Origin: Capsulimonadales bacterium
GTDB lineage: Bacteria > Armatimonadota > Armatimonadia > Armatimonadales > Armatimonadaceae
Assembly (NCBI GenBank): GCA_033762295.1
Contig: JANRLW010000115.1
Location: 1 to 49,333 of the forward strand
Length of the DNA: 49,333 nucleotides
Direction of reading: 5' to 3'
Both the position numbers and the translations under genes were made by a program. Below the pieces are notes generated by a model. The model saw nothing but the letters and a program-made list of their open reading frames with translations. It was not told the DNA's origin and did no database searches. Positions 8,822-29,736 of this stretch are shown here, piece by piece. The stretch's first letter is position 1. Each line of letters begins with the position of its first letter.

Positions 8822-10708
8822 TTACACGGGGACGATACGGACTTTGACCTTCATCTCCGGCTTGATCTGCTGCAGTTTGACGCCACCGGCGCGGCGGCGT
8901 TCGAGCAGGTCGGTCGGGTGCAGGGACGCGACATCCGGCAGGGTGACGGTCAGCGCGTCGGCGTCGAAGTTCGTATATTCCTCGCCGTTGATCCACACCG
9001 CGTCCAGCTTGACGCTGCCCGGCGGCAGGATGTCCGGAGAGACGCGCAGGATATTGTCCTTGAACGCGCCCGGCTGCGGCTTGAAGTAGAAGTCCATCGG
9101 CTGCTTCATCACCAGCAGGTTGCTGTAAACGGCGGCAAGGTAGCAGAGTTCCGTCGAGTGGTACGCGCCCATCGAGTGGCTACCCTTGTCGCGTTCGTTG
9201 CCGAGCAGGTACGGCAGACCGTTCGCCAGGACGTTGAAGTAGACCGCGCCGGAATCGGTATCGAGGAACCAGGCGTTGTAGAACGCCGCCGACTCCTCGG
9301 CCAGCTTCTTGTAGGTCGGGTTCTCCAGGCATCCGGCCAGGATGAAGTAGGCGAGAATCCCCTGCTCCTGCTGCCACCAGGCCTTGCGGTCGTGGAACGC
9401 CAGCCGGTGGAACGTCTCTCCCTCGCCCAGTTGTCGCTCCAGCACGTCGTACCAGCCGCCCCGCTGCTTGTCCATCGCGACGGCCGGCATGGTATCGGCC
9501 AGTTTGGTGGCCAGGGCGACATACTTCTCCTTCGGCAGCGCCGAGTTCATCCGCATCAGGTTCCAGGCGATCTTCAGGTCATGACCGCCGACCGCGCGAT
9601 CCTGCTGCCAGCCCCAGGTCTTGTCCGGGCTCCAGTCCTCGTAGAACTTCTCCTGTACGAACGGGCTACCGTCCTTCGCGGGGAACTTCTCCTCGATGAG
9701 GTCGAAGACATACTCCAGGAAGTCCAGATACTTCTGCTCGCCGGTCGCCAGGTAGAGGTTGATCAGGTAGGCCGGAGCATGGTCACCGACCGAGTTCCAG
9801 TTCTTGCGAGCGCAGTTGTGGGCAAGCGATTCCGCCTTCGGGTCGAACGTATCGGTCGTGATGTGCGAGTAGTAGCCGGCCTGCGCGGACTCATCCTTGA
9901 AATACCGGTTGAACAGATTGATCGTCTTCTCGGTATCGGCCAGGATGCTGGGATCGCCGGTGATACGGTAGGTCTGGATCGGGCCGGCGAGAGCGTAGAT
10001 CTGCTCGTACGCCGGAATCGCGCCCCAGTCGTCGCCGAAGAGCGAGCCCAGCACTTCATGGACGCCATCCGGTTGCATATCGAGGGCGTGCAGCCAGTAG
10101 ACGACGCCTTCGTTCTCCTTGTCGCGCTTGCAGATATTGCGCTGCAGGTACTTGGTGCCCTTCTCGGCCGCTTCCAGGAAGCGGTCTTCGCCGGTCATCA
10201 GGTAGGCGGTCGCGAACCCGTAGACGGTGCGGGAGATGGTGTCGGTCTCCTGCAGGGTGGTTCCGAGCTTGCTGCCGTCCAGGTAAAGCTGGGTGCGATA
10301 CTTGGTGTAGTCGATCGGGCCGCCCTCGAACTGCGAGTTGATATAGAAGTCGGCCAGTTCGCGCACCTGGTTGATCCACCAGTCCTGCTTCTCGAATACG
10401 AAATCCCCGGCCTTCTTGCCCGCGAAGACAAGATGCTTCACTTCGAACTTGTAATCGCCGCCTTCCGGGTAGTAAATGCCGTAGGCGAAGACGTAGTTCC
10501 CCACGGACAGCGCCTCGCTCAACTGCCCCATGGCGTCCTGGTAGTTCTCGCCCAGATTGCGGACATATTCGCCGAAGGTGGAGGAGGTCAGTTTGGCCTC
10601 AAATTCCTTATCGCCGGGCGTCTTCAGTCGGAAGGTACCCTGGCTCAGGTCCGCCGCCGTCACATAACCGGCGATGGTATCGGAAAACGTAAAGTCGATC
10701 TGATTCAT
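8822..10708 (-). CDS. AGE family epimerase/isomerase-like (alpha/alpha)6 protein with extra N-terminal domain
   Basis: SRTVYGFATAYLMTG, VGDHAPAY, GHDLKIAWNL, AWWQQEQGILAY, YHSTELCYLAAVY. Confidence 0.8.
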   Translation of the reverse strand: MNQIDFTFSDTIAGYVTAADLSQGTFRLKTPGDKEFEAKLTSSTFGEYVRNLGENYQDAMGQLSEALSVGNYVFAYGIYYPEGGDYKFEVKHLVFAGKKAGDFVFEKQDWWINQVRELADFYINSQFEGGPIDYTKYRTQLYLDGSKLGTTLQETDTISRTVYGFATAYLMTGEDRFLEAAEKGTKYLQRNICKRDKENEGVVYWLHALDMQPDGVHEVLGSLFGDDWGAIPAYEQIYALAGPIQTYRITGDPSILADTEKTINLFNRYFKDESAQAGYYSHITTDTFDPKAESLAHNCARKNWNSVGDHAPAYLINLYLATGEQKYLDFLEYVFDLIEEKFPAKDGSPFVQEKFYEDWSPDKTWGWQQDRAVGGHDLKIAWNLMRMNSALPKEKYVALATKLADTMPAVAMDKQRGGWYDVLERQLGEGETFHRLAFHDRKAWWQQEQGILAYFILAGCLENPTYKKLAEESAAFYNAWFLDTDSGAVYFNVLANGLPYLLGNERDKGSHSMGAYHSTELCYLAAVYSNLLVMKQPMDFYFKPQPGAFKDNILRVSPDILPPGSVKLDAVWINGEEYTNFDADALTVTLPDVASLHPTDLLERRRAGGVKLQQIKPEMKVKVRIVPV

Positions 10709-10748
10709 GTCGTTCCCTTTTCAGTGCGGCAAGGAGATGGTGGGAGGT

Positions 10749-12926
10749 CTACGCCTCCCGGGATAACAGCACAACGATGCTGCGCGCGTTGACGAAATAC
10801 GAATGCCCGGTGATTTCCACCTCCTCGCCCCACTCCTCAATGTCGTGCGGCGATGGCAGGGAGGTATCGACGGTGCGGAACCATTTTCGACCGGAAATGA
10901 CCGGCAGTTCGAAGGTCAAACCCTCATGGTGCATGTTCATCATGACATGCAGGTCCGGATCGTTTTCAAACCCGGCCATCGTATAGGCCAGCACCCGTCC
11001 GTTGGGATCGCCCCATCCCGGCGCGTTCAACTGACACCCGTGCCAGGAGATATCCGGCACCCCTCGCTCGTTCATCTTTCCGGTGAAGAAGCGGGGGCGG
11101 TGCAGTTCGTTATAGTTGCGCCGCCGGTGCGTCACGGCCGAGCAGAAGCGAAGCAGATCGGCGTTCTTTTCGGTCAGGGTCCAGTCGAACCATGTAATCT
11201 CGTTGTCCTGACAGTACGGGTTGTTGTTGCCCTTCTGGGTCCGCATCACTTCGTCCCCGGCGGTGAGCATCGGTACGCCCTGAGACAGCATCAGAATCAG
11301 GAGGAAGTTCTTCATCTGTCGGCGGCGCAGGTCGTTGACCCAGGCATCCTCGGTCGGCCCCTCGACGCCGCAGTTCCAGCTGAGGTTGTCGTCGATCCCG
11401 TCGCGGTTGTTCTCACCGTTGGCGAAGTTATGCTTGTAGTTGTAGCTGACCAGGTCGGCCATGCAGAAACCGTCGTGGCAGGTGATGAAGTTGATGCTGT
11501 TGATCGGCAGTTCGCCCGCCGCCTCGAACAGGTCCGCGCTGCCCGCAATCCGGTTCGCCACCTCGCCGATCAAACCGGGATCGCCCTTGATAAATCGTCG
11601 GATGGCGTCTCGATACTTACCGTTCCACTCGGCCCAGCGGTATCCGGGGAAGAACCCGACCTGATACAGCCCGGCGGCGTCCCACGCCTCGGCGATGATC
11701 TTGGTCTCCGCGAGGGCATCGGACAGTTCGATCTGCCAGACGACCGGGGGTGTCATCATCGGAAGGCCATCCTCGCCGCGTACGAGGATACAGGCCTCGT
11801 CGAACCGGAAGCCGTCGACGTGCATCTCCTTGACCCAGTACTCGAGGCACTCGATGATCATCTTCTCGGTGATCGGGTGGTTGGCGTTGACCGTGTTACC
11901 GCACCCGGAGTAGTCCATGTAGTACTGTCGATCCTGCGGTGAAAGGATGTAGTAGACATGGTTGGCGAGTCCGCGGAAGTTGATGGTCGGCCCCTGATGG
12001 TTGCCCTCGGTCGTATGGTTGAACACGACATCGAGAATGACTTCGATTCCCGCCCGGTGCAGGGCCTTGACCATGTCCCGGAACTCGTTGATATGCGAGC
12101 CGGCTTCGGGAGTGGTGCAGTAGCCTTTGTGCGGCGCGAAGAAGCTGACGGTGCTGTACCCCCAGTAGTTGGGCATCGGCGAGCCGTCGATCGGGCTGAG
12201 GCGGATGATCTCTTTTTCGTCGAAATCGTGAACGGGCAACAGTTCGACCGCGGTGACGCCGAGGGATTTCAGGTAGGGAATCTTCTCGATGACTCCGGCG
12301 AACGTCCCCGGATTCGCGACGCCGGAGGTCGAGGACCGGGTAAAGCCGCGCACATGCATCTCGTAGATGATGGTCTCGCTCATCGGGCGATTGAGCGGCT
12401 TATCGCCTTCCCAGTCGTAATCATCGATATCGATGACGACCCCGCGCATCGAGGTGGCGATATTGTCACCGGGACCGCAGGCGGCCGACCGATCCCAGAG
12501 CGTGTTGGTGATTCCTCGCGCGTACGGATCGATCAGCACTTTGTTGCGGTTATACCGGAACCCGTTATGCGGATCGTGCGGTCCGTCGACACGGAAGGCG
12601 TAATGCGCGCCCGGCTTCAATCCCTTGACATAGACATGCCAGAAGTGGAAGCTTTTATTGCGGGTTTCATCCAGTTCGATGACCATCTTCGGATGGAGAT
12701 CGTCATGCTCATCGAAGATCAACAGCTCCACCGCCGTCGCCTTTTCGCCGAAGATGGAGAAGTTGACGCCGTTGGCATCGGGTGTCGCGCCGAGCGGGTG
12801 CGGCCGTCCGGGCATAATTTCGTATTCGGATTCCACTTCCTGCAGGACGACGGTCGTCACCGGTTGCGTCTCATCAGGTTCGATCAGCGCTTCGTTCTCG
12901 TTTCTGGAAACGGCTTTACGGGCCAT
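10749..12926 (-). CDS. glgX: Glycogen debranching enzyme / isoamylase (GH13 + CBM48)
   Basis: GRPHPLGAT, NYWGY, DVVFNHT, DGFRFD, AEAWD, TCHDGF, QKGNNNPYCQDN; catalytic D/E/D present. Confidence 0.93.
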   Translation of the reverse strand: MARKAVSRNENEALIEPDETQPVTTVVLQEVESEYEIMPGRPHPLGATPDANGVNFSIFGEKATAVELLIFDEHDDLHPKMVIELDETRNKSFHFWHVYVKGLKPGAHYAFRVDGPHDPHNGFRYNRNKVLIDPYARGITNTLWDRSAACGPGDNIATSMRGVVIDIDDYDWEGDKPLNRPMSETIIYEMHVRGFTRSSTSGVANPGTFAGVIEKIPYLKSLGVTAVELLPVHDFDEKEIIRLSPIDGSPMPNYWGYSTVSFFAPHKGYCTTPEAGSHINEFRDMVKALHRAGIEVILDVVFNHTTEGNHQGPTINFRGLANHVYYILSPQDRQYYMDYSGCGNTVNANHPITEKMIIECLEYWVKEMHVDGFRFDEACILVRGEDGLPMMTPPVVWQIELSDALAETKIIAEAWDAAGLYQVGFFPGYRWAEWNGKYRDAIRRFIKGDPGLIGEVANRIAGSADLFEAAGELPINSINFITCHDGFCMADLVSYNYKHNFANGENNRDGIDDNLSWNCGVEGPTEDAWVNDLRRRQMKNFLLILMLSQGVPMLTAGDEVMRTQKGNNNPYCQDNEITWFDWTLTEKNADLLRFCSAVTHRRRNYNELHRPRFFTGKMNERGVPDISWHGCQLNAPGWGDPNGRVLAYTMAGFENDPDLHVMMNMHHEGLTFELPVISGRKWFRTVDTSLPSPHDIEEWGEEVEITGHSYFVNARSIVVLLSREA

Positions 12927-13464: not shown

Positions 13465-14064
13465 TCAGGCAGTCGCCGCCGCCTCTTTCTCCCGCATGCG
13501 TTCGATGATGGCGCGGGCCAGCAGGTGGCAATGCCCCCCGGTGCGCGCCGTGATCAGGTCCTCATCCACCACCACATCGGCGTCGACATAGACCGCGCCC
13601 ATATTGCGGGCGTCGCCATACAGATTGTTGTGGACGACGACATTCCGTCCGCGCACCAGTTCGGGCATCGGGGCGACCAGCCACATTCCGTGACAGATAA
13701 TACCCTTGATTACTTCCCGGTTGGCGAACGCGCGGGCGAGCAACTGGGTCGCGGGCGGCACCTTCCGGACATCCTCCGTATAGCGGAGACGGTCGGCGAC
13801 CATTCCGGCCGGGACGATGATCGCCGAGTACTCGGCCAGCATCTCGTCGGTGAACGCTTCGAAGCTTTCCTCCGGGAACGTTCCCAGGACGTGGTACTCA
13901 TGTCCCCGGAAGTCGATATGCTGTTGTCCCCAGAGGCGGGTCAGGAAGTGAACGTCGATTCCTTCCTCGGCAAAACGATGCTGATAATACCAGATTTCCG
14001 GTTCGTAGAAATCCGACTCGATCAAAATGCCGATCTTCTTGCCGGCAAGGCTGACGTCGCTCAT
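13465..14064 (-). CDS. DJ-1/PfpI family protein
   Basis: ESDFYEPE, IIVPAG, GIICHG nucleophile, DADVVVDEDLITAR. Confidence 0.88.
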   Translation of the reverse strand: MSDVSLAGKKIGILIESDFYEPEIWYYQHRFAEEGIDVHFLTRLWGQQHIDFRGHEYHVLGTFPEESFEAFTDEMLAEYSAIIVPAGMVADRLRYTEDVRKVPPATQLLARAFANREVIKGIICHGMWLVAPMPELVRGRNVVVHNNLYGDARNMGAVYVDADVVVDEDLITARTGGHCHLLARAIIERMREKEAAATA

Positions 14065-14101: not shown

Positions 14102-14995
14102 CTATTCGGCGGTTTTCTTTCGCGATTTTTCCGGTCCGACGTAGATGAAGTCGGTCATTTCGAAGACATTCACATTGCGGGCGGTATCATTCCGGATGAT
14201 CCAGCGGCGCGGATACCAGCCCGGCTTCGGGTAGACCGCCGGCTGCGGAATGAGGTCCGTTTCAAACTGATCGGGTTCCACCAGACCGGTCGGGCTGTCA
14301 AACGCCTTGCGGACGTTGGTACCGACGACCATCCCGTTCATATGCGCGTTGTAGTATAGAAAGTTCTGCCCGATGGTGATCCGTGCGGGTTGCCCGACCG
14401 GCTTGTTCGGAATATCATAGCTGACGCCGACCCCCGGAACGACCGTGTCGGGTACCCCACGGGTGACCGTCGGCGGCACCTCCTCGGCTACGGGATACTG
14501 CAGTTCGTTGACGAATCCGGGACTGGGCTGCTGCGGCGGATTCAGCAAAAAAACGGCATGAAAGTGTTCCGGTTCTTGCTCGGGACGATACTGGTCGATC
14601 GGATGGCCGGTGAAGTAAAAGAGGGCCATCTGCTTGAATGCGGTAACGGACGCCTCCGGCGGCAACGGAATAAAGTAGACATTCGGTCCTTCATCCGTAA
14701 TCGCTGTCGGCGGCTGGTTATCCCGCCCGGTTCGGTAGAGTTCGAACCCGACCGACTGGGGAACGCCACGATCCAGCGTCACGAAACTGCGTCCGAGCCG
14801 CGATGGCCCGCTCGGGCCATTGAAGATCGGCGGTTCGGGACCGAAGAAGGTTCCGGTCAGCCCGGACTGTGCGCTACCGAGGTCGCCGCTTCCGCTGCCG
14901 CACCCGGCGACCACGCCCGCCAGACCGACGCCGACAAAGGTGCAGGCGATCAACGTTCGGAAGACCCGGTTTTTGAATGTTTTTTGCTTGGTCAT
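14102..14995 (-). CDS. Lipoprotein, DUF5602/TTHB210-like
   Basis: Lipobox VVAGC; GRSFVTL..G.P..VGFEL, LPPEA..T.F, YPKPGWYP. Confidence 0.65.
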   Translation of the reverse strand: MTKQKTFKNRVFRTLIACTFVGVGLAGVVAGCGSGSGDLGSAQSGLTGTFFGPEPPIFNGPSGPSRLGRSFVTLDRGVPQSVGFELYRTGRDNQPPTAITDEGPNVYFIPLPPEASVTAFKQMALFYFTGHPIDQYRPEQEPEHFHAVFLLNPPQQPSPGFVNELQYPVAEEVPPTVTRGVPDTVVPGVGVSYDIPNKPVGQPARITIGQNFLYYNAHMNGMVVGTNVRKAFDSPTGLVEPDQFETDLIPQPAVYPKPGWYPRRWIIRNDTARNVNVFEMTDFIYVGPEKSRKKTAE

Positions 14996-15064: not shown

Positions 15065-16126
15065 TTACACAAAGGCGACATAGCCACCGAACGGTAACCC
15101 CGAGACCACGGCTCCCCTGGGTTGGCCGGTGTTCCCGTCAAACCGCAGGATCGATCCGCCGCCCAGGGCGCTGACGATGTCGCCTGCCAGCACGCTTCCG
15201 TAGCGATCCGGCGTGGTAAAACTGCCGACATACAGGTCGCCATCCGGGCCGTAGGTTATGCCGACCGGGAACGGACAGGTGGCGAAGGTGCCGACCTCGC
15301 TTCCGCTGTCCAGGTCATAGCGCACGACTCGCCCGGTGAAGTGTTCGACGACCAGCAGGTCGCCGCTCGGATGAAAAGCCATCGTGAACGGGATTTTGAG
15401 ATCCCGGGCCGTATATTTCACCAACCGTCCCGTCTCCCCGTTGAGGCGCGAGATGAAGTCGGTTTCGTTCGTCAGCGGTGAATACTGGAGCGTTGAGGAG
15501 ACATAAAAGTCCCGATCCCGCGGGTTGACGATGATTCCGAACGGCGCATAAGCGGGGGCGAAGGTTCCGATGCGGTCCCCGGTACGGGCATCGTACCGCT
15601 CGATCGAATCCGTGCCCTTGCCCACATTGCCGTTCAGCGAGGGCGCATTGACGACATAAAGAAAGCCATCCGGGCCAATCACGCCGCTGTGCGGGGTGAT
15701 CAACCCCCGCGGTGGCGTCGGCAGGGAGCGCAGAAATGCCCCGGAGCCTTTGTCGTACATGAAGGCGGCATCGCCGCCCGGACTGAAGACGAAGACATTG
15801 TTATTGCTTCCGGCAACGATCCCTGCGGTCGAAATCCCCACACCTCGCGACACGGCGAAGGTGCCCTGATTCCGAAACGTTCCCGGATCGTACGATTCCA
15901 CAGTTCCGAAAAGAAAAGTGGAAACCAGCATTCGACTGGGCGGCGCGGGCACCCGGTACAGTGACCCACTGCGGCTCCCGCACCCGGTCAGCAGCGACCC
16001 GCCGAGACTCAGGGCGGCCGCCCCACCCAGTGTGTCTCTCAAAAAGGCGCGACGGGTGGTTCGGCGGGCATCTTCCGATGCCTGCCCCGTCATCGCATCT
16101 CCAACTTCGCGGAGAATCGAACTCAT
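15065..16126 (-). CDS. Tat-exported beta-propeller lipoprotein (Vgb/NHL-like)
   Basis: TRRAFL twin-arginine, LLTGC lipobox, repeated GPDGxLYV blades. Confidence 0.75.
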   Translation of the reverse strand: MSSILREVGDAMTGQASEDARRTTRRAFLRDTLGGAAALSLGGSLLTGCGSRSGSLYRVPAPPSRMLVSTFLFGTVESYDPGTFRNQGTFAVSRGVGISTAGIVAGSNNNVFVFSPGGDAAFMYDKGSGAFLRSLPTPPRGLITPHSGVIGPDGFLYVVNAPSLNGNVGKGTDSIERYDARTGDRIGTFAPAYAPFGIIVNPRDRDFYVSSTLQYSPLTNETDFISRLNGETGRLVKYTARDLKIPFTMAFHPSGDLLVVEHFTGRVVRYDLDSGSEVGTFATCPFPVGITYGPDGDLYVGSFTTPDRYGSVLAGDIVSALGGGSILRFDGNTGQPRGAVVSGLPFGGYVAFV

Positions 16127-16200: not shown

Positions 16201-17073
16201 CTAAAGGAAGCGTCCCGCCGGAACGAAATCCGTCAGTTTGAAAACGTGGTAGCTTTTATCCGAATCCCAGGTGACCGTGCTTCGAGTCGGATAGTACCCC
16301 GGTTTCGGGTAGACGACCGGTTGCGACATCGGCAGAACGATCGTCCGTTCCTCCTTCAAGAACCCGTAGGTGGCCAGCATCCCGACACCGTTCAGATGCC
16401 CCTTGAAGTAAAAATAGTTCTGACCGAAACTATTCCATCGTGGCTGGACGTGCGCCGAGGAAGGGTCCTCGTAGGCGACCCCGACGCCCCCTTCCGCCAG
16501 TTCGATATTGCCGGGGATTCCGCTTCCGATCAGGTACCCGGCCGGAATCTCCTCGGAGTTCGTTACCGGAGCCGTCTCATCGCGCAGTCCTTCGGAGGCG
16601 GCTCCGGGGGGAGCGATACAGAACGCCGCCAGGATGTGAGGAATGTCGGCGATCCCGACCGGGCGACGGCCATTCGCCCAGTTCAGCAACACCATATACT
16701 TGAACGGGGTCGTGTTGGCCTCGGGGGGCAGCGGCAGATAGAACGTATCCTCGGTATCGAACTTCGGATACGGAAGGGTTTTCAGCGCACGATCCGGCAG
16801 TTCCCAGCCAAGTTCGGTCGGAATGCCGTTGTTCAGCGTGACGAACGTTCGTCCGAGATCGACGGCGATGTCGCCGACCGGCTGCAGATTGACCGCACTG
16901 ACAAAACGCCCGGTACGTCGAACCGACAGAGTAGGATCGTCCTTTCCGCCGCCGCATCCGGTCGCAAAAACGCCCGAGGCTCCGAGCGCCGCACTGCCAA
17001 CGCCATAACGGACGATCAGATCCAGCATTTCCCGCCGACTGTAGAAGCGGTTTTCGGTTGCTATTCGTTCCAT
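16201..17073 (-). CDS. Tat lipoprotein, DUF5602-like; paralog of 14102-14995
   Basis: SRREML, FATGC; GRTFVTL, LPPEANTTPF, GQNYFYF, YPKPGYYP; start refined to ATG 17073. Confidence 0.7.
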   Translation of the reverse strand: MERIATENRFYSRREMLDLIVRYGVGSAALGASGVFATGCGGGKDDPTLSVRRTGRFVSAVNLQPVGDIAVDLGRTFVTLNNGIPTELGWELPDRALKTLPYPKFDTEDTFYLPLPPEANTTPFKYMVLLNWANGRRPVGIADIPHILAAFCIAPPGAASEGLRDETAPVTNSEEIPAGYLIGSGIPGNIELAEGGVGVAYEDPSSAHVQPRWNSFGQNYFYFKGHLNGVGMLATYGFLKEERTIVLPMSQPVVYPKPGYYPTRSTVTWDSDKSYHVFKLTDFVPAGRFL

Positions 17074-19626: not shown

Positions 19627-20019
19627 TCAGGCCAGCGAACCGTCGGGATACTGCACCATCCCGGCGAAATGGATCGCGATCTTGCCGTCCCGCAGGACCC
19701 AGCTGTCGGCGAAACGCATCTGGGACTCGGTTCCGCCCGCTGTCATCGTAATCTGCTCGGTGATCATCAGGGTCTCCGGGTCCTCGGTCTCGCCCCAGAA
19801 GACGATCTCGGTTTCCAGTCCCTCGATCCCCAGGATGCCCTGCATATGCTCTTTCAGGCCCTCGCGGCCCTTGTAGATGACCGGCTTTTTCAGGAAGCTG
19901 CTGATCAGGAGGGCGTCGTCCGTGTACTGATCGAGCAGGGCGTCGATATTCTTATCGAGGATGAACTGAATGTGCTCGCGATACATGCGACCCAGTTTGG
20001 TGTCCGGAACGTTCTGCAT
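19627..20019 (-). CDS. NTF2/SnoaL-like protein
   Basis: IDALLDQYTDDALL, GREGL, DSWVLRDGKIAIHF; start refined to ATG 20019. Confidence 0.8.
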   Translation of the reverse strand: MQNVPDTKLGRMYREHIQFILDKNIDALLDQYTDDALLISSFLKKPVIYKGREGLKEHMQGILGIEGLETEIVFWGETEDPETLMITEQITMTAGGTESQMRFADSWVLRDGKIAIHFAGMVQYPDGSLA

Positions 20020-21545: not shown

Positions 21546-22366
21546 GCGGCACCTCCCGTGCGTTTCACGAAGGTGTCGATCGCCGTGGCCATCTCGTCCG
21601 CGACCTCGAACGCCGGGAAGTGGCTCTTCGCTTCCGGCAGGAAAGCGATCTCATACCAGGGGTTCGCCTGACCGAACTGCTCCTGCGCGGCTTTATAACC
21701 GGGGTCCTTCGGTTGAGCGTAGACATGGAGCGTGGGCGCGAGCGGGTTCAGTTTCGAGAGGGCTTCGAGCGCGCTGCCGTTATCCCGGAGACAGCTGCCG
21801 ATGACCCGCCCGGAGCGGTTCCAGATATCCGCGCCGTAGCCGCCCATCTCCTCTTTCACGAAACGGTTTACCGCTTCGTTGTCGCTGTCCTCCAGCCAGA
21901 TGTTGAAAAGGATATCGCGCGCCCCTTCCCAGGCGTTCGGATCGGCCAACCCGTCGACCAGCCCCATGTACTCGGGCGGCGGCGGCACGACGATCCAGTC
22001 GGTGTGGACGATGGCCGGAACCTTTTCCGGCCCGTAGTGCCGTCGAAGCAGAATGCCGATCCAGCCGGAGTGCGACATGGTGACCGGGATGAACCGATCG
22101 ACGTTCTCAGCCCGGAGCACGGCGACGACGTCCTCATAAAGCCCTTCCGCGCCATGATCCGGCACGTCGCGCTGCGAGTCGCCGTGTCCGCGGAAGGTCA
22201 GGGAGAGAACGCGGTAACCTTTCGCCGCCAGCGTCTCCGGCAGGTCGGCCCAGCCGTTGCGGCTCATGCACCAGGCGGTGGTCAGCACCAGGGTCGGCGC
22301 GGTCGAGTCCGCCGGTCCTAGGGCGACGTAATCAATGCCAATGCCATCGGAGGTCGTGGTTTTCAT
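21542..22366 (-). CDS. alpha/beta-hydrolase-fold protein, Hod/Qdo/AqdC-type cofactor-independent 2,4-dioxygenase
   Basis: AWC, RGHGDS, MSHSGW, TDW, LFNIWL, IWNRSGRVI, YAQP, SHFP follow the Hod pattern recalled from memory. Confidence 0.8.
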   Translation of the reverse strand: MKTTTSDGIGIDYVALGPADSTAPTLVLTTAWCMSRNGWADLPETLAAKGYRVLSLTFRGHGDSQRDVPDHGAEGLYEDVVAVLRAENVDRFIPVTMSHSGWIGILLRRHYGPEKVPAIVHTDWIVVPPPPEYMGLVDGLADPNAWEGARDILFNIWLEDSDNEAVNRFVKEEMGGYGADIWNRSGRVIGSCLRDNGSALEALSKLNPLAPTLHVYAQPKDPGYKAAQEQFGQANPWYEIAFLPEAKSHFPAFEVADEMATAIDTFVKRTGGAA

Positions 22367-22370: not shown

Positions 22371-23954
22371 TTACTTCTCGTTGAGGATCATCTGGGCGAC
22401 AATATTTCCGGACGCGCCCGCCAGTCCGAGACCGGGGTGCGTCGCCGCGCCGATCTGATACAACCCGGCGATCGGCGTCCGGTGTCCGTTCTGGCCCGGC
22501 AAGGGGCGCAGGGTATAGCTCTGCGAGATCGCGTGCGATCCGCTGAACGGGTCTCCCTGGTTCCAGTTGAGGTTCCGGTTCTGAATATCGAGCGGTGAGA
22601 GCGTGAACTGCCCGATAATGCTCTGCTTCAGGTTCGGAATACGCGAGGCGACCGTGTCGATCACCCGATCCGTGTAGTACTTTTTGAGATCATCGGTCCA
22701 GGTTCCGTCGCCGACGTTGACCTCGCCACGGGCGTCCGCTTTGACATGGAACGGGCAGTCCAGTTGCTGGAGGCAGAGGATCGCCTTGCCCTCGGGCGCA
22801 CGACTCGGATCGAGCAGGGTCGGGACGCCGACGCCGACGACCGGATCGGACGGCAACAGATGCGAACTCGTTTCCAGGTAGTTCTTCGCCACACCGTCCA
22901 GACCGGCGCAGACGTGGGTGTAGGTCGCCTGGTTCAGTCGTTCGTCGTGCCACTTCGGCGGTTCGGACAGCGCAAGGTGGACGAAGAAGACGGCGTGTCC
23001 GTAGCGGTAGCCCTTCGCCTCCTGCACCAGGTGGTCGGCGATGCCGGGGACATCGGCCAGCAACTTGAGATAGAGCTGGTCGGGATTCACGGTGGCGATG
23101 ACCGCCTTCGTCGCGCGGATCTCCTCGCCGTCCTCGGTAACGACGCCGACCGCCTTGCCGTCCTCCACCAGAATCTTTTTCGCGGTGGTATTGGGGAGGA
23201 TGACGCCGCCCTGGTCCCGGATCAGACGGGCAAGCGCGACCGCCTGCATCTCCGCGCCGCCGACGCCGACCGGGAGACCGGCCATCTGCAGACCGAGGCC
23301 GAAGATTTTGGTCCAGAATCCGGAGTTGACATCCTCCGGTCCGTGCCCGCTGTGCAGCACCCAGGGCGCGAGAAACGCCTTCCAGACATCGCCTTTAAGG
23401 TTGGCGTCCAGCATCTCACGCGCGGAGAGCAGGAACTCCTTGGCGAACGAGGTCGGCAGGCCGTTCGGGCCGACCATCAGTTCGTCCATGACCTGTTTCG
23501 CGCGCGGCGACGTCAGATCGGAGGCAAGCAGTTCGAAGACCTGCGGGGCGACCGAGCCGATGCCGCCGAGGATCGCGCCCCAGCCGGCGGAATCGCCGGG
23601 ACAGAGCCGTTCGACTTCGGCCATATTGGCCGCGCCGTCGGTGGTGATGACGGTCGCGCGTCCGTCGGGCAGGGAGACCCCCGCCGGGGTGGTGCTGTTC
23701 GCCATCGTCAGCCCGCGCTCCGTCAGTTCCTTGTTGAACCGCGCATACGCCTGCGACAGGGCGAACAGGATCAGGAACCCGGCGTAGACATCGTGCTTGA
23801 AGCCGGGGAGCGTCAGTTCGTCGGTGCGCAGTCCGCCGCCGGGCCGATCGTTACGGTCCAGAATCGCGACACGGTAACCGGCGTTGGTCAGGTACGCGGC
23901 GCACACGAGCGCATTCGGCCCGCACCCGATAATCGTGATGTCATAGGTCTGCAT
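22371..23954 (-). CDS. Phytoene dehydrogenase-like FAD oxidoreductase (COG1233)
   Basis: IIGCGPNAL, PGGGLRTDELTLPGFKHD, RTPIAGLYQIGAATHPG.G..GASG. Confidence 0.85.
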   Translation of the reverse strand: MQTYDITIIGCGPNALVCAAYLTNAGYRVAILDRNDRPGGGLRTDELTLPGFKHDVYAGFLILFALSQAYARFNKELTERGLTMANSTTPAGVSLPDGRATVITTDGAANMAEVERLCPGDSAGWGAILGGIGSVAPQVFELLASDLTSPRAKQVMDELMVGPNGLPTSFAKEFLLSAREMLDANLKGDVWKAFLAPWVLHSGHGPEDVNSGFWTKIFGLGLQMAGLPVGVGGAEMQAVALARLIRDQGGVILPNTTAKKILVEDGKAVGVVTEDGEEIRATKAVIATVNPDQLYLKLLADVPGIADHLVQEAKGYRYGHAVFFVHLALSEPPKWHDERLNQATYTHVCAGLDGVAKNYLETSSHLLPSDPVVGVGVPTLLDPSRAPEGKAILCLQQLDCPFHVKADARGEVNVGDGTWTDDLKKYYTDRVIDTVASRIPNLKQSIIGQFTLSPLDIQNRNLNWNQGDPFSGSHAISQSYTLRPLPGQNGHRTPIAGLYQIGAATHPGLGLAGASGNIVAQMILNEK

Positions 23955-24028: not shown

Positions 24029-24898
24029 CTACCCGAACGCGCCCAGCTGCTTCATCAGGCCGAGGTCGTTTTCGTTGACCCAGATCTCGGCGATCTTACC
24101 GCCCTGGAACACGAAGATATCGATGCCCTGATCCTTGATCTTATTGCCGGTCGGCGGCATTCCGAGGAACGGACCGTTGTGCGTTCCCTCGATGAACCAG
24201 CGAGCGGCGGCCTTGTCGCCCTCGGCGATCTGTCGCTCGATCGTGAACTTGATATCCGGGAAGCCGGTGCGCAGACCGGTGACGAAGCCGCGCATGCCGT
24301 CCTTGCCGCGGATCGGTTCCGGCAGGGTCGGGATATGGAACGAGAAGCGCTCGGCGATGATCTCGTCGATCACCTCGAACTTCCCCTCGCTCATCAGTTC
24401 GCCGAAATAGCGGCCCACGAGAGCGAGCTTTTCGTCGTTGGAGAGTTGTACCGGGGCGGGCGCTTCGGGCATCGGGATCGCGCCGATCTGAATCAGCAGG
24501 CCGAGCGTGTCCTCGTTGATGCGGGCTTCGACGAACTTGCCGTCCTTGAATCGGAGCCAGCTCATGCCGTCGATAACGAACGGGTTGCCCTTGGCCGGAA
24601 TATCGCCCTTCAGGGTCTTGAGCGGGGTGCCGGTGTGCGTGCCGCGCGCGGTCCAGTGTCCGACGACCGTATCGCCGTCGCCGAGCAGGTGCTCGACGGT
24701 GAACTTCAGGTCGGGGAACGCGCCGCGCAGCATGGTCACGAGGTCCTTGAACTCCTGACCGCGGTACGGTTCGACGTGGGTCGGGTTGGTGAACTCGAAC
24801 TCGTCGGCGAAGTACTGATCGACGAAGGTGAGATCGCCGGCGCTCATCAGTTCGGCGTAGTAGCGGCGGGCCAGTGTCTTGTTTTCTTCAACGGACAT
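24029..24898 (-). CDS. Tandem two-domain SnoaL-like ester cyclase
   Basis: Two repeats of ..FPD.KFT.E...GD.....W...GTH.G; start refined to ATG 24898. Confidence 0.88.
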   Translation of the reverse strand: MSVEENKTLARRYYAELMSAGDLTFVDQYFADEFEFTNPTHVEPYRGQEFKDLVTMLRGAFPDLKFTVEHLLGDGDTVVGHWTARGTHTGTPLKTLKGDIPAKGNPFVIDGMSWLRFKDGKFVEARINEDTLGLLIQIGAIPMPEAPAPVQLSNDEKLALVGRYFGELMSEGKFEVIDEIIAERFSFHIPTLPEPIRGKDGMRGFVTGLRTGFPDIKFTIERQIAEGDKAAARWFIEGTHNGPFLGMPPTGNKIKDQGIDIFVFQGGKIAEIWVNENDLGLMKQLGAFG

Positions 24899-24975: not shown

Positions 24976-25416
24976 TCAGCTTTCGGCGGGGGGATTCGGC
25001 GCGAGGGCTTCGGCGATATTGGTAAAGCCGGCCCAGGTCTTCTTGATCTTGCCCTGCTCGTTGAGCAGCGCGTAGTGGATGCCGGTGACCTTGGAGTCGC
25101 GGCCGGTCGGGGCGAACCCGGCGAACGGCGCGGCGTGGGTCCCGCCGAACTCCATGCGGGTGCAGACGATACGGCCGTCGGAGACGATGTCCTGAACGGT
25201 GTAGTGGGCATCCGGGAAGGCGGTGCGGAAGGCGGCGACGCGGGCCTTGAAGGCTTCGCGACCGGTCTTGACCGGACCGGAGCCGGACGCCAGCGCGGGG
25301 GCGTCGAACTCGTAGTCCTCGGCGTACATTTCGTCGATCAACTCGACATGGTTATCGGTCAGTACCTCGCCGAACAGGCGGCGGATCACGTTCTTGGCTT
25401 CTTCGGGAGTGGGCAT
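24976..25416 (-). CDS. SnoaL-like ester cyclase
   Basis: AFPDAHYTVQDIVSDG..GTH..PFAGFAPTGR. Confidence 0.88.
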   Translation of the reverse strand: MPTPEEAKNVIRRLFGEVLTDNHVELIDEMYAEDYEFDAPALASGSGPVKTGREAFKARVAAFRTAFPDAHYTVQDIVSDGRIVCTRMEFGGTHAAPFAGFAPTGRDSKVTGIHYALLNEQGKIKKTWAGFTNIAEALAPNPPAES

Positions 25417-25470: not shown

Positions 25471-25920
25471 CTACGGGTGGACGCCGTGGGCCTGGGCGGC
25501 GATCAGCGCGGCGCGCAACGGGGTGCCGTACTCGCAGATCCGGACATTCTTGAAGCGACCCTCGTCGTCGAACTGGACGAACCAGAGTTCCGCGCCGTGG
25601 ACCTTTTCGTTGGTCGGGGGAACGCCCGCGAACTCCTTGGCATGGGTGCCGCTATACGGCAGGTCGAAGGAGCCGCTGTTGCCCTCGACGATCAGGCTGG
25701 CGATATCGACCTGGACATCGGGAAACGCGTCGGTCCAGCCGAAGACGGCCTCACGGAAGATGGCGAAGCCGCTCGCCTGACCGGCGGCGGTCGGGACGCC
25801 GGGCGCTTCGAGCACGACATCGGGAGCGCAGATCTCCGACATGATGGAGTCGATTTTCTTCTCATTCAGACCGACCGCGACAAACTTCTTGATAGTCGCG
25901 ATGTTCTGCTCAACAGACAT
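25471..25920 (-). CDS. SnoaL-like ester cyclase
   Basis: AFPDVQVDIASLIVEG..GTHAKEFAGVPPT. Confidence 0.85.
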   Translation of the reverse strand: MSVEQNIATIKKFVAVGLNEKKIDSIMSEICAPDVVLEAPGVPTAAGQASGFAIFREAVFGWTDAFPDVQVDIASLIVEGNSGSFDLPYSGTHAKEFAGVPPTNEKVHGAELWFVQFDDEGRFKNVRICEYGTPLRAALIAAQAHGVHP

Positions 25921-26001: not shown

Positions 26002-26430
26002 TCAAACCAGCCGTTCGTGGACCGGCTTCAGATGGAACGCCTTCCAGAAGAAGGCATCGTAGTTGTGCTGGTCGCCCATAAGCACCGTCACCTCGGCGAT
26101 CTTGCCGTCGCGGATCACGTAGTAGTTGCAGTTGGTGACGTTGAGTTTCGCGCCGTCCGGCCCGTCGCCTTCGGCCATGTACACTTCCGCGACCGCGCCG
26201 TTGGTCAGTTCGCCCATGCCGAGCGGGGTGACATGCAGGCCCGCGCCGCGCAGCTTGCCGAAGAAACCGAGCACCTCATCGATGCCTTTCTTCTGTCCGG
26301 CGAGGGGGTGGTGACCGGGGAGGTTCCAGACGATCTCGGGATGGAAGATTTCGGACCGGAGCCGTTCCATATTGCCGGTCTTGAAACACTCGTACATGTG
26401 GTGCACGATTTCCACGTTCTCGGAAGCCAT
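26002..26430 (-). CDS. NTF2/SnoaL-like protein
   Basis: IFHPEIVWNLPGHHPLAGQKKG, IRDGKIAEV; start refined to ATG 26430. Confidence 0.85.
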   Translation of the reverse strand: MASENVEIVHHMYECFKTGNMERLRSEIFHPEIVWNLPGHHPLAGQKKGIDEVLGFFGKLRGAGLHVTPLGMGELTNGAVAEVYMAEGDGPDGAKLNVTNCNYYVIRDGKIAEVTVLMGDQHNYDAFFWKAFHLKPVHERLV

Positions 26431-26567
26431 CTTTGCAATCCTTTCACGTTTCATGCGGGCGATCGCATCTCCGGCAGGAGATACGATCGCCCGTTACTTT
26501 ATTTGTAGGTTTCGAGGGAAATGGTTCGCCGACCTCCCGGCCGACGAAAGATCATCGGTTTTCGGTC

Positions 26568-27056
26568 TTACAGTCGGGCGAAGCCGGGAGCGTACTGGAA
26601 GGGCACGACCACCGCGTTGTAGCTGACGATCTCCAGACCGAACTCGTTGCGATCGGTGCGGCGCAGGGTCCAGTGCTGGGTGGCATCCATGGCGGTACGT
26701 TTCGACTTGGCGGCCGGCGGGGTGAACCAGCTTGCCTGCCAGGCGACGACGACATCGACTTCCGCCCCGTCGCCCTCGATACGGGCGTCGACGCTGGCGA
26801 CGTTGTGGTTCTCATCGAAGAAGATATTGATAACGCCCGGCAACTGGTTACCGGCGGCCGTCGTGCCGCCGCGATACCAGGCGAGGAAATCGTTGAGACC
26901 TTCCAGAGTGCTCTCCGGAAAGATCATCTTCAGGTCCTCCGTCGCCAGAAAACGAACGATTTCGGCTTCGGGGGCGTGAAAGTCGAGCGCCTGATACCAG
27001 GCGGCGGCGAAAGCCTTGATATTCTCTTCGGACAACGGTTCCGTCTGCGTGCTCAT
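26568..27056 (-). CDS. NTF2-like protein
   Basis: AWYQALDFH, FFDENHNV, VVVAWQASWF..P.AKSKR; NTF2-type helix/strand pattern. Confidence 0.7.
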   Translation of the reverse strand: MSTQTEPLSEENIKAFAAAWYQALDFHAPEAEIVRFLATEDLKMIFPESTLEGLNDFLAWYRGGTTAAGNQLPGVINIFFDENHNVASVDARIEGDGAEVDVVVAWQASWFTPPAAKSKRTAMDATQHWTLRRTDRNEFGLEIVSYNAVVVPFQYAPGFARL

Positions 27057-27132
27057 GTCGTTTTCATGTCCTTTCCTCCGGGCGCCTGCGGGCGCCCGGG
27101 GATTATGTTTTCCGCTACCTGCGGGTCGGGCG

Positions 27133-28848
27133 CTATTGACCGCAGGTGTTGCCGATACGCTCCGGATGGATGTTCCCCTCCAGTACCAGATCGATCAGGA
27201 ACGGTCCGGGGGTGGCGAGCATCTGTTCGATGGCGTGTTTGATCTGATACGGTTGTTCGACGCGCAGACCGGGTACTCCCAGGCCACGGGCGATATCGAC
27301 GAATCCGATCGGCGGATCGGAAAGATCGAAGGACAGCGGGTAGTCGTGCTTTTCGATCCCCTGTTCCTTCCAGAACTGGTCGATATTGAGCTGAAGCAGA
27401 CGGTACGAGCCGTTGTTGCAGATGACAAATTTCGCGCCGATATTATGCCGGGCGGCGGTCCAGAGCGCCTGAATGGTGTACATGCTGCCGCCGTCGCCGG
27501 TAAACCCGATGACGGTTTTCTCCGGGTTCGCGAGTTTGACGCCGATCGCGCCGGGGATGCCGACCCCGAGGCTGCCGCCGCGCGTCAGGAAGTATGCGTT
27601 CTCCCGCTGCGGCGTCAGGTAGCGAACGACGGCCGGCGAACTGGTCAGCGCCTCATCGAAGACGACGGCGTCCGGCGGCAGGTGCAGGGCCAGTTCCTTC
27701 GCGAACCGGGCCATGTGCATCGGCACGGCATCCCCTTCGGCGTCATCCTTCGCCTTATCGGCGGCGTCCTTCTCGGCCTTCGCTCTGGCCAGGGCGACGA
27801 CCCGCGCCTCGGCGGCGGCTTTCCGCTCCGGGGTCAGGACGGATTCCAGCACGTCGGCCAGCGCGGCCAGGCTCCGTTTGGGATCGGCGACGACGCCCAG
27901 ATCGACCGGATGGTTCTTGGCGATCTCGTAAGCGTTCAGATCGAAATGGATGGTCTTCGCGTTCTCCCCCCAGATGTCGCCGAGATGCGGGAAGACTTCG
28001 GGCACGATATAGGTGCCGACCACCAGATTGACATCGCCCTTTCGCAGCAGGGGCAGACTGGCGGAACCGAACATATGACCGGTCATTCCCTTGTAGCAGG
28101 GGTGACCGTAGGGCAGGTTCAGTTCTCCGGCATCCGCCTCCCAGACCTCCGCCCCGAGCAGGGTGGCGACCCGTCCGAGTTCCTCGGTCGCGCCGGAGTA
28201 GGCGACGCCATCGCCGATATAAATCATCGGCGTCTCGGCGTTCGCCAGCCACTCCGCCGCCTGCCGGAGGATTTCCGGGTCGGGCGCGGTCCGGGTGGAC
28301 GGGATCGACGCCGGTCGCACCGGCTCGACCGCCGGGGCGTCGAGGATATCGGCGGGCAGGCAGACATAGACCGGCCCCATCGGGGGGGTCGCGGCGATCT
28401 TGACGGCGCGGCGCAGCACCCGGAGCAGCGAGGACGGTTCCATGACCATCGTGCTCCACTTGGTGACCGGTTCCATGATGGCGACCAGGTCGGCGGCCAT
28501 CTGCGCATCCATCGCCATATACTTGATACCGGCGTCGCCGCCGATCACGACCAGCGGAGAGTGTCCGCGCTTCGCCTGATAAAGCGCGCCGACACCGTTC
28601 CCGATCCCCGGACTGCTGTGCAACTGGACCAGGGTCGGCTTTTTGGTCGCCCGGGCGTAACCATCGGCCGTCAGAACGGCGACGGACTCCTGCAGGGTCA
28701 GAATGTAGCGAAGATCGGGGTAATCCTTGAGCGCATCGAGAAATCCCTGCTCGACCGTCCCCGGGTTGCCGAACATGACGTTCATCCCGTCCGCCAGGAA
28801 CTGTTCCAGGATGGCGTGACGGCCTGTTTTGGGAGCCTGATCTGTCAT
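27133..28848 (-). CDS. Thiamine diphosphate-dependent enzyme, benzoylformate decarboxylase-like
   Basis: FGNPGTVE, LQESVAV..ADGYA, QLHSSPG, GDGGSMYTIQALWTAA..ICNN. Confidence 0.9.
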   Translation of the reverse strand: MTDQAPKTGRHAILEQFLADGMNVMFGNPGTVEQGFLDALKDYPDLRYILTLQESVAVLTADGYARATKKPTLVQLHSSPGIGNGVGALYQAKRGHSPLVVIGGDAGIKYMAMDAQMAADLVAIMEPVTKWSTMVMEPSSLLRVLRRAVKIAATPPMGPVYVCLPADILDAPAVEPVRPASIPSTRTAPDPEILRQAAEWLANAETPMIYIGDGVAYSGATEELGRVATLLGAEVWEADAGELNLPYGHPCYKGMTGHMFGSASLPLLRKGDVNLVVGTYIVPEVFPHLGDIWGENAKTIHFDLNAYEIAKNHPVDLGVVADPKRSLAALADVLESVLTPERKAAAEARVVALARAKAEKDAADKAKDDAEGDAVPMHMARFAKELALHLPPDAVVFDEALTSSPAVVRYLTPQRENAYFLTRGGSLGVGIPGAIGVKLANPEKTVIGFTGDGGSMYTIQALWTAARHNIGAKFVICNNGSYRLLQLNIDQFWKEQGIEKHDYPLSFDLSDPPIGFVDIARGLGVPGLRVEQPYQIKHAIEQMLATPGPFLIDLVLEGNIHPERIGNTCGQ

Positions 28849-28872
28849 GGGGTAGTTTTTCTCACGAGCGGA

Positions 28873-28902
28873 CCTCTCCCGCGAACGGTTCCGCGGGAGA
28901 GG
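28873..28902. repeat. REP-like intergenic hairpin
   Basis: cctctcccgcg-aacggttc-cgcgggagagg. Confidence 0.55.
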
Positions 28903-28914
28903 CGGGGCGGACGA

Positions 28915-29736
28915 TTACCAGCCGAAGCGGGTGGTGCCTTTTTCGAGGACTTCGACCATCTTCTCTCCGGTCAGATAGGAGTCGTGGGTCGAGCGGCCCG
29001 TGATGAACGGGTAGTCGACGATCACCGACAGCTCCTTGCCGAAGTTGCCGATATACGCGCCGTCCGGAGCGGTGGCGTCGCGCAGGATGAACTCCAGCGG
29101 ATACGGCGGCGGACCCATGTTGAAGTCGGTCCCCATGAAGCCGGTGCCGTCCTTGTAGTCGTACTCCTTGCAGTGTCCGGTGACATGCTTGCCGGAGATG
29201 ATGCTTTTACCGTTCTGCCAGTCGCGGGCGAAGGCGAGACAGGTCACGCCGTAGCACTCCGCGCCGATCGGCTTGTTGTTGCGGTAGAAGTGCATGATGA
29301 TGTCGTGGACGCGCTGATTGTTGGCCATATCCACGATCGGCCCGCTTCCGCCGACGAGCAGCAGCGCATCGAACGAAGCGAGGAAGTTATCGGCCTCATC
29401 CTTGGCGTTGTTATACTTCTCCAGTTCTCGCACCAGGAACTCCGCGCTGTAATACGGGCGTTCCGGCATGATTTCGGAGAGGTTGAGCGGGTTGTCGAGG
29501 CGAGGAGACTTGTCGAGTTCGCGCACCTTGGCCGCCACTTCCGCGGTGGTCACCGGGCGTCCGAGCGGCGGGTCGACGTAGGATTCGTCCATGCTGGGCG
29601 GCAGTGCCGGGGCGCGCTTGCCTTTCGGCGTCGCGAAGGTCACTTCGTATCCCGCTTTATCGAACATTTCGAGGGGCCCGAGGAGTTCCTCTCCCCAGTA
29701 ACCGTATTCCGAGAGGATAACCAGGATTTTTTTCAT
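28915..29736 (-). CDS. Type 1 glutamine amidotransferase-like / Hsp31-like (DJ-1 superfamily) protein
   Basis: GYWGEELLGP, LLLVGGSG, AECYG nucleophile elbow, ITGRS. Confidence 0.85.
   Translation of the reverse strand: MKKILVILSEYGYWGEELLGPLEMFDKAGYEVTFATPKGKRAPALPPSMDESYVDPPLGRPVTTAEVAAKVRELDKSPRLDNPLNLSEIMPERPYYSAEFLVRELEKYNNAKDEADNFLASFDALLLVGGSGPIVDMANNQRVHDIIMHFYRNNKPIGAECYGVTCLAFARDWQNGKSIISGKHVTGHCKEYDYKDGTGFMGTDFNMGPPPYPLEFILRDATAPDGAYIGNFGKELSVIVDYPFITGRSTHDSYLTGEKMVEVLEKGTTRFGW

Follow-up and report, generated by a model that had tools for sequence, protein, structure and literature searches.

The closest described relative of the locus considered here is the cyanobacterial icfG cluster. 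The excerpted text of PMC8670252 lists slr1852-1862 as including Slr1855 (N-acetylglucosamine 2-epimerase), an anti-sigma antagonist, GlgX, and IcfG, beside sll1784-1785, and that of PMC12329169 describes Slr1861 as an anti-SigC kinase and reports carbon-regulation phenotypes for icfG mutants; earlier icfG studies (Beuf 1994, Shi 1999, and Gonzalez 2001) are cited in these two papers. Work on the cluster, which dates back to 1994, has centered on its kinase and phosphatase, whereas its two sugar enzymes are still without a function, and we found no assay of Slr1855 in the CC-licensed PMC and bioRxiv texts. Here, we analyze a cluster of 20 genes with a related core in a Capsulimonadales bacterium of the Armatimonadota (assembly GCA_033762295.1; genome of 5.16 Mb, 94.5% complete). 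The stretch analyzed, hereafter the window, is the entire 49,333-nucleotide contig JANRLW010000115.1 (49.3 kb; C115). Searches of the same body of literature, taken without supplements, found no paper on this combination of genes.

All 20 genes lie on the minus strand and run from position 29736 down to 8822, with intergenic gaps of -4 to 140 bp and with purine-rich stretches resembling ribosome-binding sites before most starts. In order, they encode GAT1, a thiamine diphosphate (ThDP) enzyme, five NTF2/SnoaL proteins, a CrtI-like protein, a Hod-like protein, a GMC protein, another NTF2 protein, a predicted barrel, a propeller, a lipoprotein, a second propeller, a second lipoprotein, PfpI, VOC, GlgX, and the AGE-like protein (Table 1). 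Coordinates, order, and GC content agree with the initial annotation, made from the letters alone, which had described 20 co-oriented genes in this order leaving an AT-rich control region. The folds that it named agree with the Pfam and NCBIfam matches, namely ThiJ/DJ-1 (GAT1), TPP N/M/C, CrtO/CrtI-type, HOD, GMC, PfpI, glyoxalase/VOC, GlgX, and GlcNAc_2-epim. SnoaL matches cover four of the five upstream NTF2 genes and the sixth NTF2 gene at 19627, while the remaining one (26568-27056), with a weak Pfam match, is assigned to the NTF2 fold by a profile match. Lipobox-like cysteines bear out the four lipoproteins, three of which also have twin-arginine motifs, and the beta-barrel named with them is predicted from a signal peptide and a C-terminal Phe. 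In line with the claim that the cluster is free of polyketide and nonribosomal peptide synthases, no scaffold-forming core enzyme of the polyketide synthase, nonribosomal peptide synthetase, terpene, or ribosomally synthesized and post-translationally modified peptide type was found by Pfam or NCBIfam among the 20 proteins. The extent of the run is as annotated, although the conserved neighborhood continues beyond both of its ends.

What had been presented as an unrecognized cluster is real, conserved, and icfG-type in its core, which is homologous in sequence to slr1855/slr1857. The AGE-like protein of S. salina LEGE 00031 (L013) is 58% identical to that of the window over 626 residues, and its gene lies ~4 kb from that of a Sll1785/CucA orthologue (PDB 2xl7, E 4.7e-111). 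The window shares with the icfG cluster the AGE-like marker, an adjacent GlgX gene, and a DJ-1/PfpI gene, but has no STAS, kinase, or phosphatase gene: STAS and SpoIIE (IcfG-type PP2C phosphatase) each gave seven matches in the genome, none of them on the window contig, and the RsbW of the cluster, used as a query, gave no genome match at E 1e-5. It also differs in the position and clade of GlgX (upstream and of the FRFD-E type, versus FRFD-L for Slr1857-like proteins) and in its enzyme kit, with GAT1, ThDP, NTF2a, GMC, and VOC instead of Slr1852, CMD, and EthD; the latter three had no match in the genome, which yielded only a 31% PfpI match. Further additions are a SnoaL-CrtI-Hod module and an envelope block. 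Since the defining switch genes are absent, the window cluster is a relative of the icfG cluster rather than a strict member, in an Rsb-switch-free form.

These variants can be placed among 80 loci, which are the best-scoring AGE matches and include many from related cyanobacteria. Many loci read AGE-STAS-GlgX-STAS-RsbW-SpoIIE; STAS is a separate gene after AGE in 41 and is fused in 24 by tblastn and in two more by Pfam, and an RsbW-like gene is present in 33 of the 80. Kit A (ThDP, close PfpI, or VOC) was found in 37 loci and kit B (Slr1852, CMD, EthD, or other PfpI) in 34, with no locus carrying both and nine carrying neither. Exceptions to this split exist, since three plasmids pair kit A with EthD-annotated genes. 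DJ-1, VOC, and NTF2 folds are common to the two kits, suggesting that their carbonyl chemistry is similar. In S. salina (L113:2828-9705), the icfG cluster diverges from an ABM gene, genes for two CucA-like periplasmic proteins, a ketose-epimerase-like TIM barrel, a hydrolase, a DctP binding protein, and a WD40 propeller, and an HbpS-like gene. CucA presumably resembles quercetinase, one of the CO-releasing dioxygenase types, and was considered as a functional stand-in for Hod; this idea was dropped as CucA lies near AGE in one genome only. The S. salina periplasmic genes showed no sequence match to the envelope block and were rejected as its counterpart.

AGE-like relatives are numerous, with at least 594 confirmed among the 600 pattern matches listed; of 7997 candidates that were scored, 4237 match at E 1e-50. 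Identity is 55-77% for the best 80, which come from Cyanobacteria, Chloroflexota, Chlorobia, Proteobacteria, Planctomycetota, Acidobacteriota, and other groups. The closest labelled relatives of the window are Armatimonadota and Abditibacteriota records. Near home the gene is patchy (a strong match in 3 of 60 relatives and in 8 of 201 genomes of the phylum, this one included), and 17 of 72,556 plasmid records carry it. Conserved synteny elsewhere, the absence of which had been named as grounds for giving up the proposal, does exist, as the gene order recurs in Armatimonadota-related genomes. It is nearly identical in G217, with one propeller fewer, and in G003 and G014, where it is divided between two contigs in each case, while G083, G097, G141, and G265 hold the same genes with GMC-NTF2f relocated behind the envelope block. 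In 37 of the 39 loci with enough sequence to show it (of 42 found, 3 being at a locus edge), the gene immediately before that of the ThDP enzyme is GAT1; one exception is L014, in which GMC and GAT1 are fused. The SnoaL-CrtI-Hod module follows NTF2a in both Armatimonadota-related genomes and in two cyanobacteria (L110 and L140), but neither CrtI nor Hod was found in the stretches retrieved from G085, G113, and G291, so the module is optional. Searches for ThDP and Hod covered 50 of the 80 loci and detected a ThDP orthologue in 28 and Hod in 6 of these 50 AGE-bearing genomes.

A minimal set of GAT1, ThDP, PfpI, and AGE recurs on plasmids of Streptomyces, Deinococcus, Gemmobacter, and Nostoc, and on the Streptomyces plasmids TreS, GlgE, GlgB, or nucleotidyltransferases stand beside it. 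One of these (L131, 4485-28030) has no GlgX and encodes TreS, GlgE, GalU, phosphoglucomutase, a StrR-type regulator, ScbA/ScbR, and MFS transporters; it is the best candidate for finding the product. Second copies of kit A genes were seen in two genomes (L030; L095 and L096).

On the alpha-glucan side, GlgX scores 723.6 bits against TIGR02100 (cutoff, 640.9), has no signal peptide, and is encoded 40 bp from the AGE gene. The absence of glgA/B/C/P or treY/Z neighbors that had been remarked on was confirmed: GlgB, GlgP, glycogen-synthase-family, and other GH13 matches lie elsewhere in the genome (contigs C77, C20, and C89), which holds five GH13 matches in 5.2 Mb and gave no GlgC above cutoff. 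This sets the locus apart from a classical glycogen or treXYZ operon. Among the 80 loci, 53 have at least 4 kb on both sides of AGE (the 27 shorter ones were dropped), and all 53 show a GH13 match no more than 10 kb away from the AGE gene. GlgX is downstream of AGE in 41 of the 80 loci, upstream in 31, and not seen in 8; other GH13 proteins take its place in L018, L020, and L129. In a tree of 73 GlgX sequences, the cluster copies fall into 38 Slr1857-like, FRFD-L, downstream proteins and 32 FRFD-E, upstream proteins, including that of the window, and in this tree, printed without support values, the FRFD-E group is sister to the other GlgX of S. salina, presumably the Slr0237 orthologue. The residue directly after the nucleophile Asp is Glu in all 32 upstream-type copies and Leu in the other 41 aligned sequences, and this Glu is a possible marker of specificity.

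Glycogen has almost no reducing ends, and debranching creates them. We infer that the GlgX and AGE genes stay together because AGE-family enzymes need the reducing ends that debranching would supply. A similar arrangement is found in the TreX-TreY-TreZ route, where, in the partial text of PMC11046441, a debranching enzyme stands beside an enzyme that uses the released reducing ends; here, however, TreY and TreZ are absent and the partner is an AGE barrel with carbonyl-chemistry enzymes.

The AGE-like protein was modeled from an alignment of 57 rows (pLDDT, 86.8), which gave an N-terminal beta domain, a barrel, and a C-terminal beta domain. The model superposes on mannose isomerase (5x32) with a Z score of 42.1 and a root mean square deviation of 2.3 over 384 aligned residues, and the top eight rows of a fold search were all AGE-family proteins, cellobiose epimerases included, at 14-20% identity. 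By sequence alignment, Arg160, Asn305, His310 (plus or minus one residue), His376, Trp382, Trp445, Glu448, and His517 correspond to active-site positions of the epimerases. The (alpha/alpha)6 barrel, the three-His center, Arg160, Trp382, Trp445, and Glu448 are thus shared with cellobiose 2-epimerase, mannose isomerase, and YihS. In addition to its low identity, the protein differs from these in its extra terminal beta domains, in the STAS fusions common in its family, and in having Lys379 in place of the GHxxE glutamate, which we take to be essential in cellobiose 2-epimerase and mannose isomerase, and Glu520 where those enzymes have an arginine following the last His. Every distinct match (93-97 of 93-97), paralogues of 35% identity included, has the same residue at each of ten active-site positions, among them the three His, Lys379, and Glu520; Lys379 is present in 96 of 96 AGE-family matches. 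The score against the EpiA model is 33 bits (cutoff, 800). For the N-terminal domain, an Atlas search gave no match and the fold search barely tested it, so that its OB-like look comes from secondary structure only. Cellobiose epimerases act at the reducing end via an enediol and three histidines, according to the portion of PMC5726027 concerned with mechanism, and the AGE-like protein likely attacks the reducing ends of maltodextrins.

Taken together, the cluster may encode a glucan-fed small-molecule pathway, a reading to which we give an even chance. GlgX would first free short alpha-1,4-glucan chains and so supply reducing ends, as TreX does for TreY, and the AGE-like enzyme would act on the glucose at these ends, yielding a reactive sugar of the keto or dicarbonyl type. 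Its His-based enediol chemistry might then continue to beta-eliminate the O4-linked chain ("peeling"), leaving a deoxy-hexodiulose. In the excerpt of PMC8056936, a 4-O-glycosyl 2-keto sugar beta-eliminates its substituent under mild conditions, with a half-life of 17 h at pH 7 and 30 C, which makes an isomerase-derived lyase chemically plausible; enzymatic peeling, taken on its own, is nonetheless somewhat doubtful. The two DJ-1 proteins, VOC, NTF2a, GMC, and the ThDP enzyme could rearrange, dehydrate, oxidize, cleave, or decarboxylate the sugar product, the optional SnoaL-CrtI-Hod module might modify or open a hydroxy-enone ring, and the envelope block would handle a small, probably released product outside the cytoplasm.

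The initial annotation had drawn an analogy to the anhydrofructose route. That pathway, of fungi and algae, leads to ascopyrone and microthecin: a storage glucan is turned into a reactive keto sugar and, by elimination, into a pyranone-type product, as would happen here; the likeness is one of function only. GH31, the family of alpha-1,4-glucan lyase, had no match in this 94.5% complete genome (the control was positive in 6 of 14), and although it occurs in 25 of 51 genomes, none of its matches was listed within 100 kb of the AGE gene where positions were comparable. Aldos-2-ulose dehydratase (PF18637) gave no match in any of the 51 genomes, nor in any of the 14 controls. Of the proposed pathway, the alpha-glucan link is robust, given the 53 loci, the two GlgX clades, and the TreS/GlgE substitutes, and the specific anhydrofructose route finds no support.

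Several observations weigh against a glucan-fed pathway. The window cluster has no conserved inner membrane exporter. The locus counts are not independent, since the 80 loci are top matches and partly close kin, and one divergent AGE copy with kit A (L092) has no GH13 gene on its 13.7-kb contig. Synechocystis GlgX2 (Slr1857), which is of another clade than the window protein, was inactive in vitro and its deletion gave no phenotype in the part of bioRxiv 2022.11.21.517384 describing it, and a cluster GlgX need therefore not debranch glycogen. The Glu-to-Lys change in the AGE-like protein is paired in the alignment with the Arg-to-Glu change and, because of this pairing, may be a structural charge swap instead of new chemistry. 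Finally, the icfG phenotypes reported in the text of PMC12329169 concern carbon regulation and SigC. With these, an intracellular glucan-status signal, made or sensed by AGE and GlgX for a partner switch or other signaling, could be the purpose of the core, the enzyme kits being secondary. The frequent STAS genes and fusions, the RsbW-like genes, the anti-SigC activity of Slr1861, and the TIR, RyR-potassium-channel, and SLOG/SLATT-like genes that recur downstream in this phylum all point in this direction. We nevertheless consider such a hub quite unlikely: AGE, GlgX, and the full kit are retained in the window and in its nearest relatives without a nearby STAS, kinase, or phosphatase, and kit A or B is present in 71 of the 80 loci whatever their regulatory layout. 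The existence of a copy without the switch demonstrates that the enzymes can spread independently of it, so that the function under conservation is likely the chemistry.

What that chemistry achieves is a separate matter. Neighbors that recur in other loci are molybdenum aldehyde oxidoreductases, zinc/iron alcohol dehydrogenases, short-chain dehydrogenases/reductases, and UbiD/UbiX, and their common theme is aldehyde and dicarbonyl chemistry, for synthesis or removal. Together with the two DJ-1 proteins and VOC of the core, they fit detoxification equally well, with damaged or reactive sugars (dicarbonyls, reductones, or oxidized glucan ends) being converted to acids that re-enter metabolism, the ThDP enzyme and Hod cleaving C-C bonds, and no specialized product being formed. 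The solved relatives of HOD are, we assume, degradative, and some known ThDP hydrolases, among them IolD, open cyclic diones. We rate this as unlikely, as the alpha-glucan-building genes in several plasmid copies would be futile for salvage, GlgX is not exported by a signal peptide, six NTF2/SnoaL genes are present here and nine or more in some loci, and the distribution is patchy and plasmid borne. The Streptomyces plasmids add or substitute TreS, GlgE, or GlgB, makers of alpha-glucan, a content that agrees better with producing a substrate than with scavenging one. No sugar importer or LacI-type regulator was found among the recurring neighbor families, and some copies (L131) lie among secondary-metabolism regulators. 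The 20 genes might also be a composite island in which the AGE-GlgX-PfpI core, GAT1-ThDP, SnoaL-CrtI-Hod, and the envelope block merely share one promoter and act on unrelated substrates, perhaps aromatic or heterocyclic in the case of Hod/CrtI. GAT1-ThDP is indeed ~10-40 kb from AGE in some Nostocales and on other contigs in G067, Hod is rare among AGE-bearing genomes, and GC content at third codon positions (GC3) differs between the enzyme genes (0.77-0.87) and the envelope genes (0.68-0.79). Such an island is very unlikely in view of the place of SnoaL-CrtI-Hod behind NTF2a in both Armatimonadota-related genomes and two cyanobacteria, the GMC::GAT1 fusion, and the recurrence of the minimal set on plasmids.

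Table 1. Features of the window in order of position
Positions	Strand	Feature	Basis
6922-8613	-	Ferritin-like (VioB-like) domain fused to CDGSH and Fer4_19; possible accessory	Pfam
8822-10708	-	Slr1855-family AGE-superfamily (alpha/alpha)6 barrel, extra N- and C-terminal beta domains, no STAS; family marker	Sequence matches, model, structure superposition
10749-12926	-	GlgX/isoamylase, FRFD-E clade, triad Asp376/Glu413/Asp485; only GlgX found in this genome	TIGR02100
12993-13421	-	VOC/glyoxalase-I fold; His7, Glu52, His77, Glu126 at usual metal-ligand positions	Pfam, alignment
13465-14064	-	PfpI/DJ-1 protein, core; Glu and Cys124-His125	Pfam, NCBIfam, alignment
14102-14995	-	Lipoprotein, TTHB210-like family, H-P...H-x-H motif conserved	Alignment
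15065-16126	-	Tat lipoprotein, predicted beta-propeller, paralogue of 17096-18220	NCBIfam, sequence
16201-17073	-	Tat lipoprotein, TTHB210-like family, family His motif lost in this copy	Own hidden Markov model (HMM)
17096-18220	-	Tat lipoprotein, predicted beta-propeller	Weak ScyD/ScyE and WD40 matches
18239-19525	-	Secreted protein, Pro-rich linker, signal peptide, C-terminal Phe	Conserved in relatives; no significant family match, best E 0.046
19627-20019	-	NTF2f, SnoaL_2 protein, highly conserved	Pfam, alignment
20022-21545	-	GMC flavoprotein oxidase/dehydrogenase	Pfam; 4-bp overlap with Hod stop
21542-22366	-	HOD-like alpha/beta-hydrolase-fold protein, optional module	Full-length match to PDB 2wj3, E 6.5e-49
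22371-23954	-	CrtO/CrtI-type FAD oxidoreductase, optional module	NF045689, 217.5 bits, below cutoff; only PDB match 4dgk, E 2.9e-13
24029-24898	-	Tandem two-domain SnoaL-like protein	Pfam, NCBIfam
24976-25416	-	SnoaL-like, optional module	Pfam and relatives
25471-25920	-	SnoaL-like, optional module	Pfam and relatives
26002-26454	-	NTF2b, SnoaL_2 protein; start may be 26427	Pfam
26568-27056	-	NTF2a, NTF2 fold	SnoaL_4, E 0.0035; profile match to designed NTF2 protein, E 2.5e-4
27133-28848	-	ThDP enzyme, nearest benzoylformate decarboxylases, core kit A	E 1e-67 to benzoylformate decarboxylase in PDB
28915-29736	-	GAT1, DJ-1/Hsp31-like, core kit A	Pfam, residue alignment
29737-30085	-	Upstream intergenic region, AT-rich core 29860-30040	32-38% GC versus 62% in genome
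33199-34113	+	Bestrophin-like (PF14023) membrane protein, recurring accessory	Pfam

Among the tailoring enzymes, GAT1 has Cys161-Tyr162 in 37 of 37 sequences, with Glu17 and His188 invariant, and so lacks the Cys-His elbow of Hsp31/glyoxalase III, having Cys-Tyr there. The ThDP enzyme scores 320.8 bits against NF005485, below its cutoff of 493, while its best PDB match is of the same subfamily, and Glu54, His77, and the GDG motif are invariant in 33 of 33. NTF2a, with invariant Asp25, His27, Asp81-Glu82, and His84, is predicted to be a dehydratase or lyase; this set recalls what we take to be the Asp-His dyad of scytalone dehydratase and LinA. The VOC residues listed in Table 1 presumably have their usual metal-ligand roles. 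In the HOD-like protein, Ser98-His99, Asp123, and His249 are invariant in 10 of 10, and, on the catalytic roles that we assume for these residues in HOD, the protein is predicted to be a cofactor-free ring-cleaving dioxygenase. It shares the catalytic-position Ser-His, Asp, and His with the 2,4-dioxygenases HOD, QDO, and AqdC but has Met for two substrate-site histidines and stands in a context of sugar chemistry rather than quinolone degradation; a sugar-derived 3-hydroxy-4-pyranone would resemble the hydroxy-oxo ring of the HOD substrate. Xanthine-dehydrogenase-type molybdenum enzymes are encoded inside the cluster at L031:5790-12500 and L038:239-5497, one with UbiX/UbiD and the other with FHA and SnoaL fusions.

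In the envelope block, the 18239-19525 product is the predicted outer membrane barrel. Our HMM ties the 16201-17073 lipoprotein to Pfam TTHB210-like proteins in L019, L044, and L065 (E about 1e-32), and this family of nonpropeller lipoproteins is also found in-cluster in one acidobacterium and two cyanobacteria. The H-P...H-x-H motif of the 14102-14995 lipoprotein is a predicted metal site, and an Atlas search with this protein gave sub-threshold leads only. Relatives of the ferritin-like/CDGSH protein adjoin the cluster in L044 and L106 and are on a different contig in G003 and G014. Homologues of the bestrophin-like gene were found in L106 and 11 of the first 80 AGE loci, and Chlorobium, Competibacter, Heliobacteriaceae, Ktedonobacteraceae, and Abditibacteriota have them beside the cluster; the protein is a candidate efflux channel.

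On either side of the cluster (2939-6509 and 30086-33124, both on the minus strand) are genes for a TrkA-RyR potassium channel, a TIR-NB-ARC-TPR protein, and a membrane protein with weak Pfam likeness to SLOG/SLATT (E 0.006-0.17). In L027, L029, L132, L134, and L139, too, the AGE gene is followed by TIR, RyR-channel, and SLATT-like genes, and in this phylum such a flank may take the place of the Rsb switch as a signaling module. PADLOC returned only generic TIR/TPR matches for the flanking genes, and the genome (G000) contains more than a dozen NB-ARC/TPR paralogues of 30086-33124 (on C1, C12, C23, C44, C49, C69, C78, and others). At the contig start (579-2671, minus strand), where GC content is lower (54% at 1001-3000), an aspartyl/asparaginyl beta-hydroxylase gene and a beta-helix gene are present.

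The AT-rich region upstream of GAT1 is likely the promoter region. It has no match to the sigma-70 consensus, and no conserved motif emerged from an alignment of eight upstream regions. Promoter and terminator scans were at chance level (5 versus 4.8 and 16 versus 16.7 expected; in a second scan, 0 versus 1.6 and 5 versus 6.5), Rfam gave no match, and repeats reflect gene paralogy only. High GC3 was rejected as a mark of high expression, the ribosomal-operon genes of this genome having values of 0.68-0.77.

In conclusion, the window adds to what is known of icfG-type clusters a fully STAS-free form, a two-clade pattern of GlgX, plasmid copies with glucan-building genes, and Hod/CrtI and envelope modules. 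One might speculate, while holding the whole to be unlikely, that the Slr1855 family are glucan-peeling lyases of a new kind, which remove glucose as a deoxy-dicarbonyl from the reducing ends of maltodextrins, and that they define a large class of core-less biosynthetic clusters, an independent bacterial counterpart of the fungal anhydrofructose defense, under partner-switch control in most taxa and possibly TIR/SLOG-type signaling in Armatimonadota, with swappable kits leading to pyranone or cyclopentenone products. If the AGE-like protein indeed acts on maltodextrins, this would provide a function for thousands of proteins and an explanation for a long-standing cyanobacterial operon, and it would open a class of sugar-derived metabolites that mining rules based on core enzymes likely miss.

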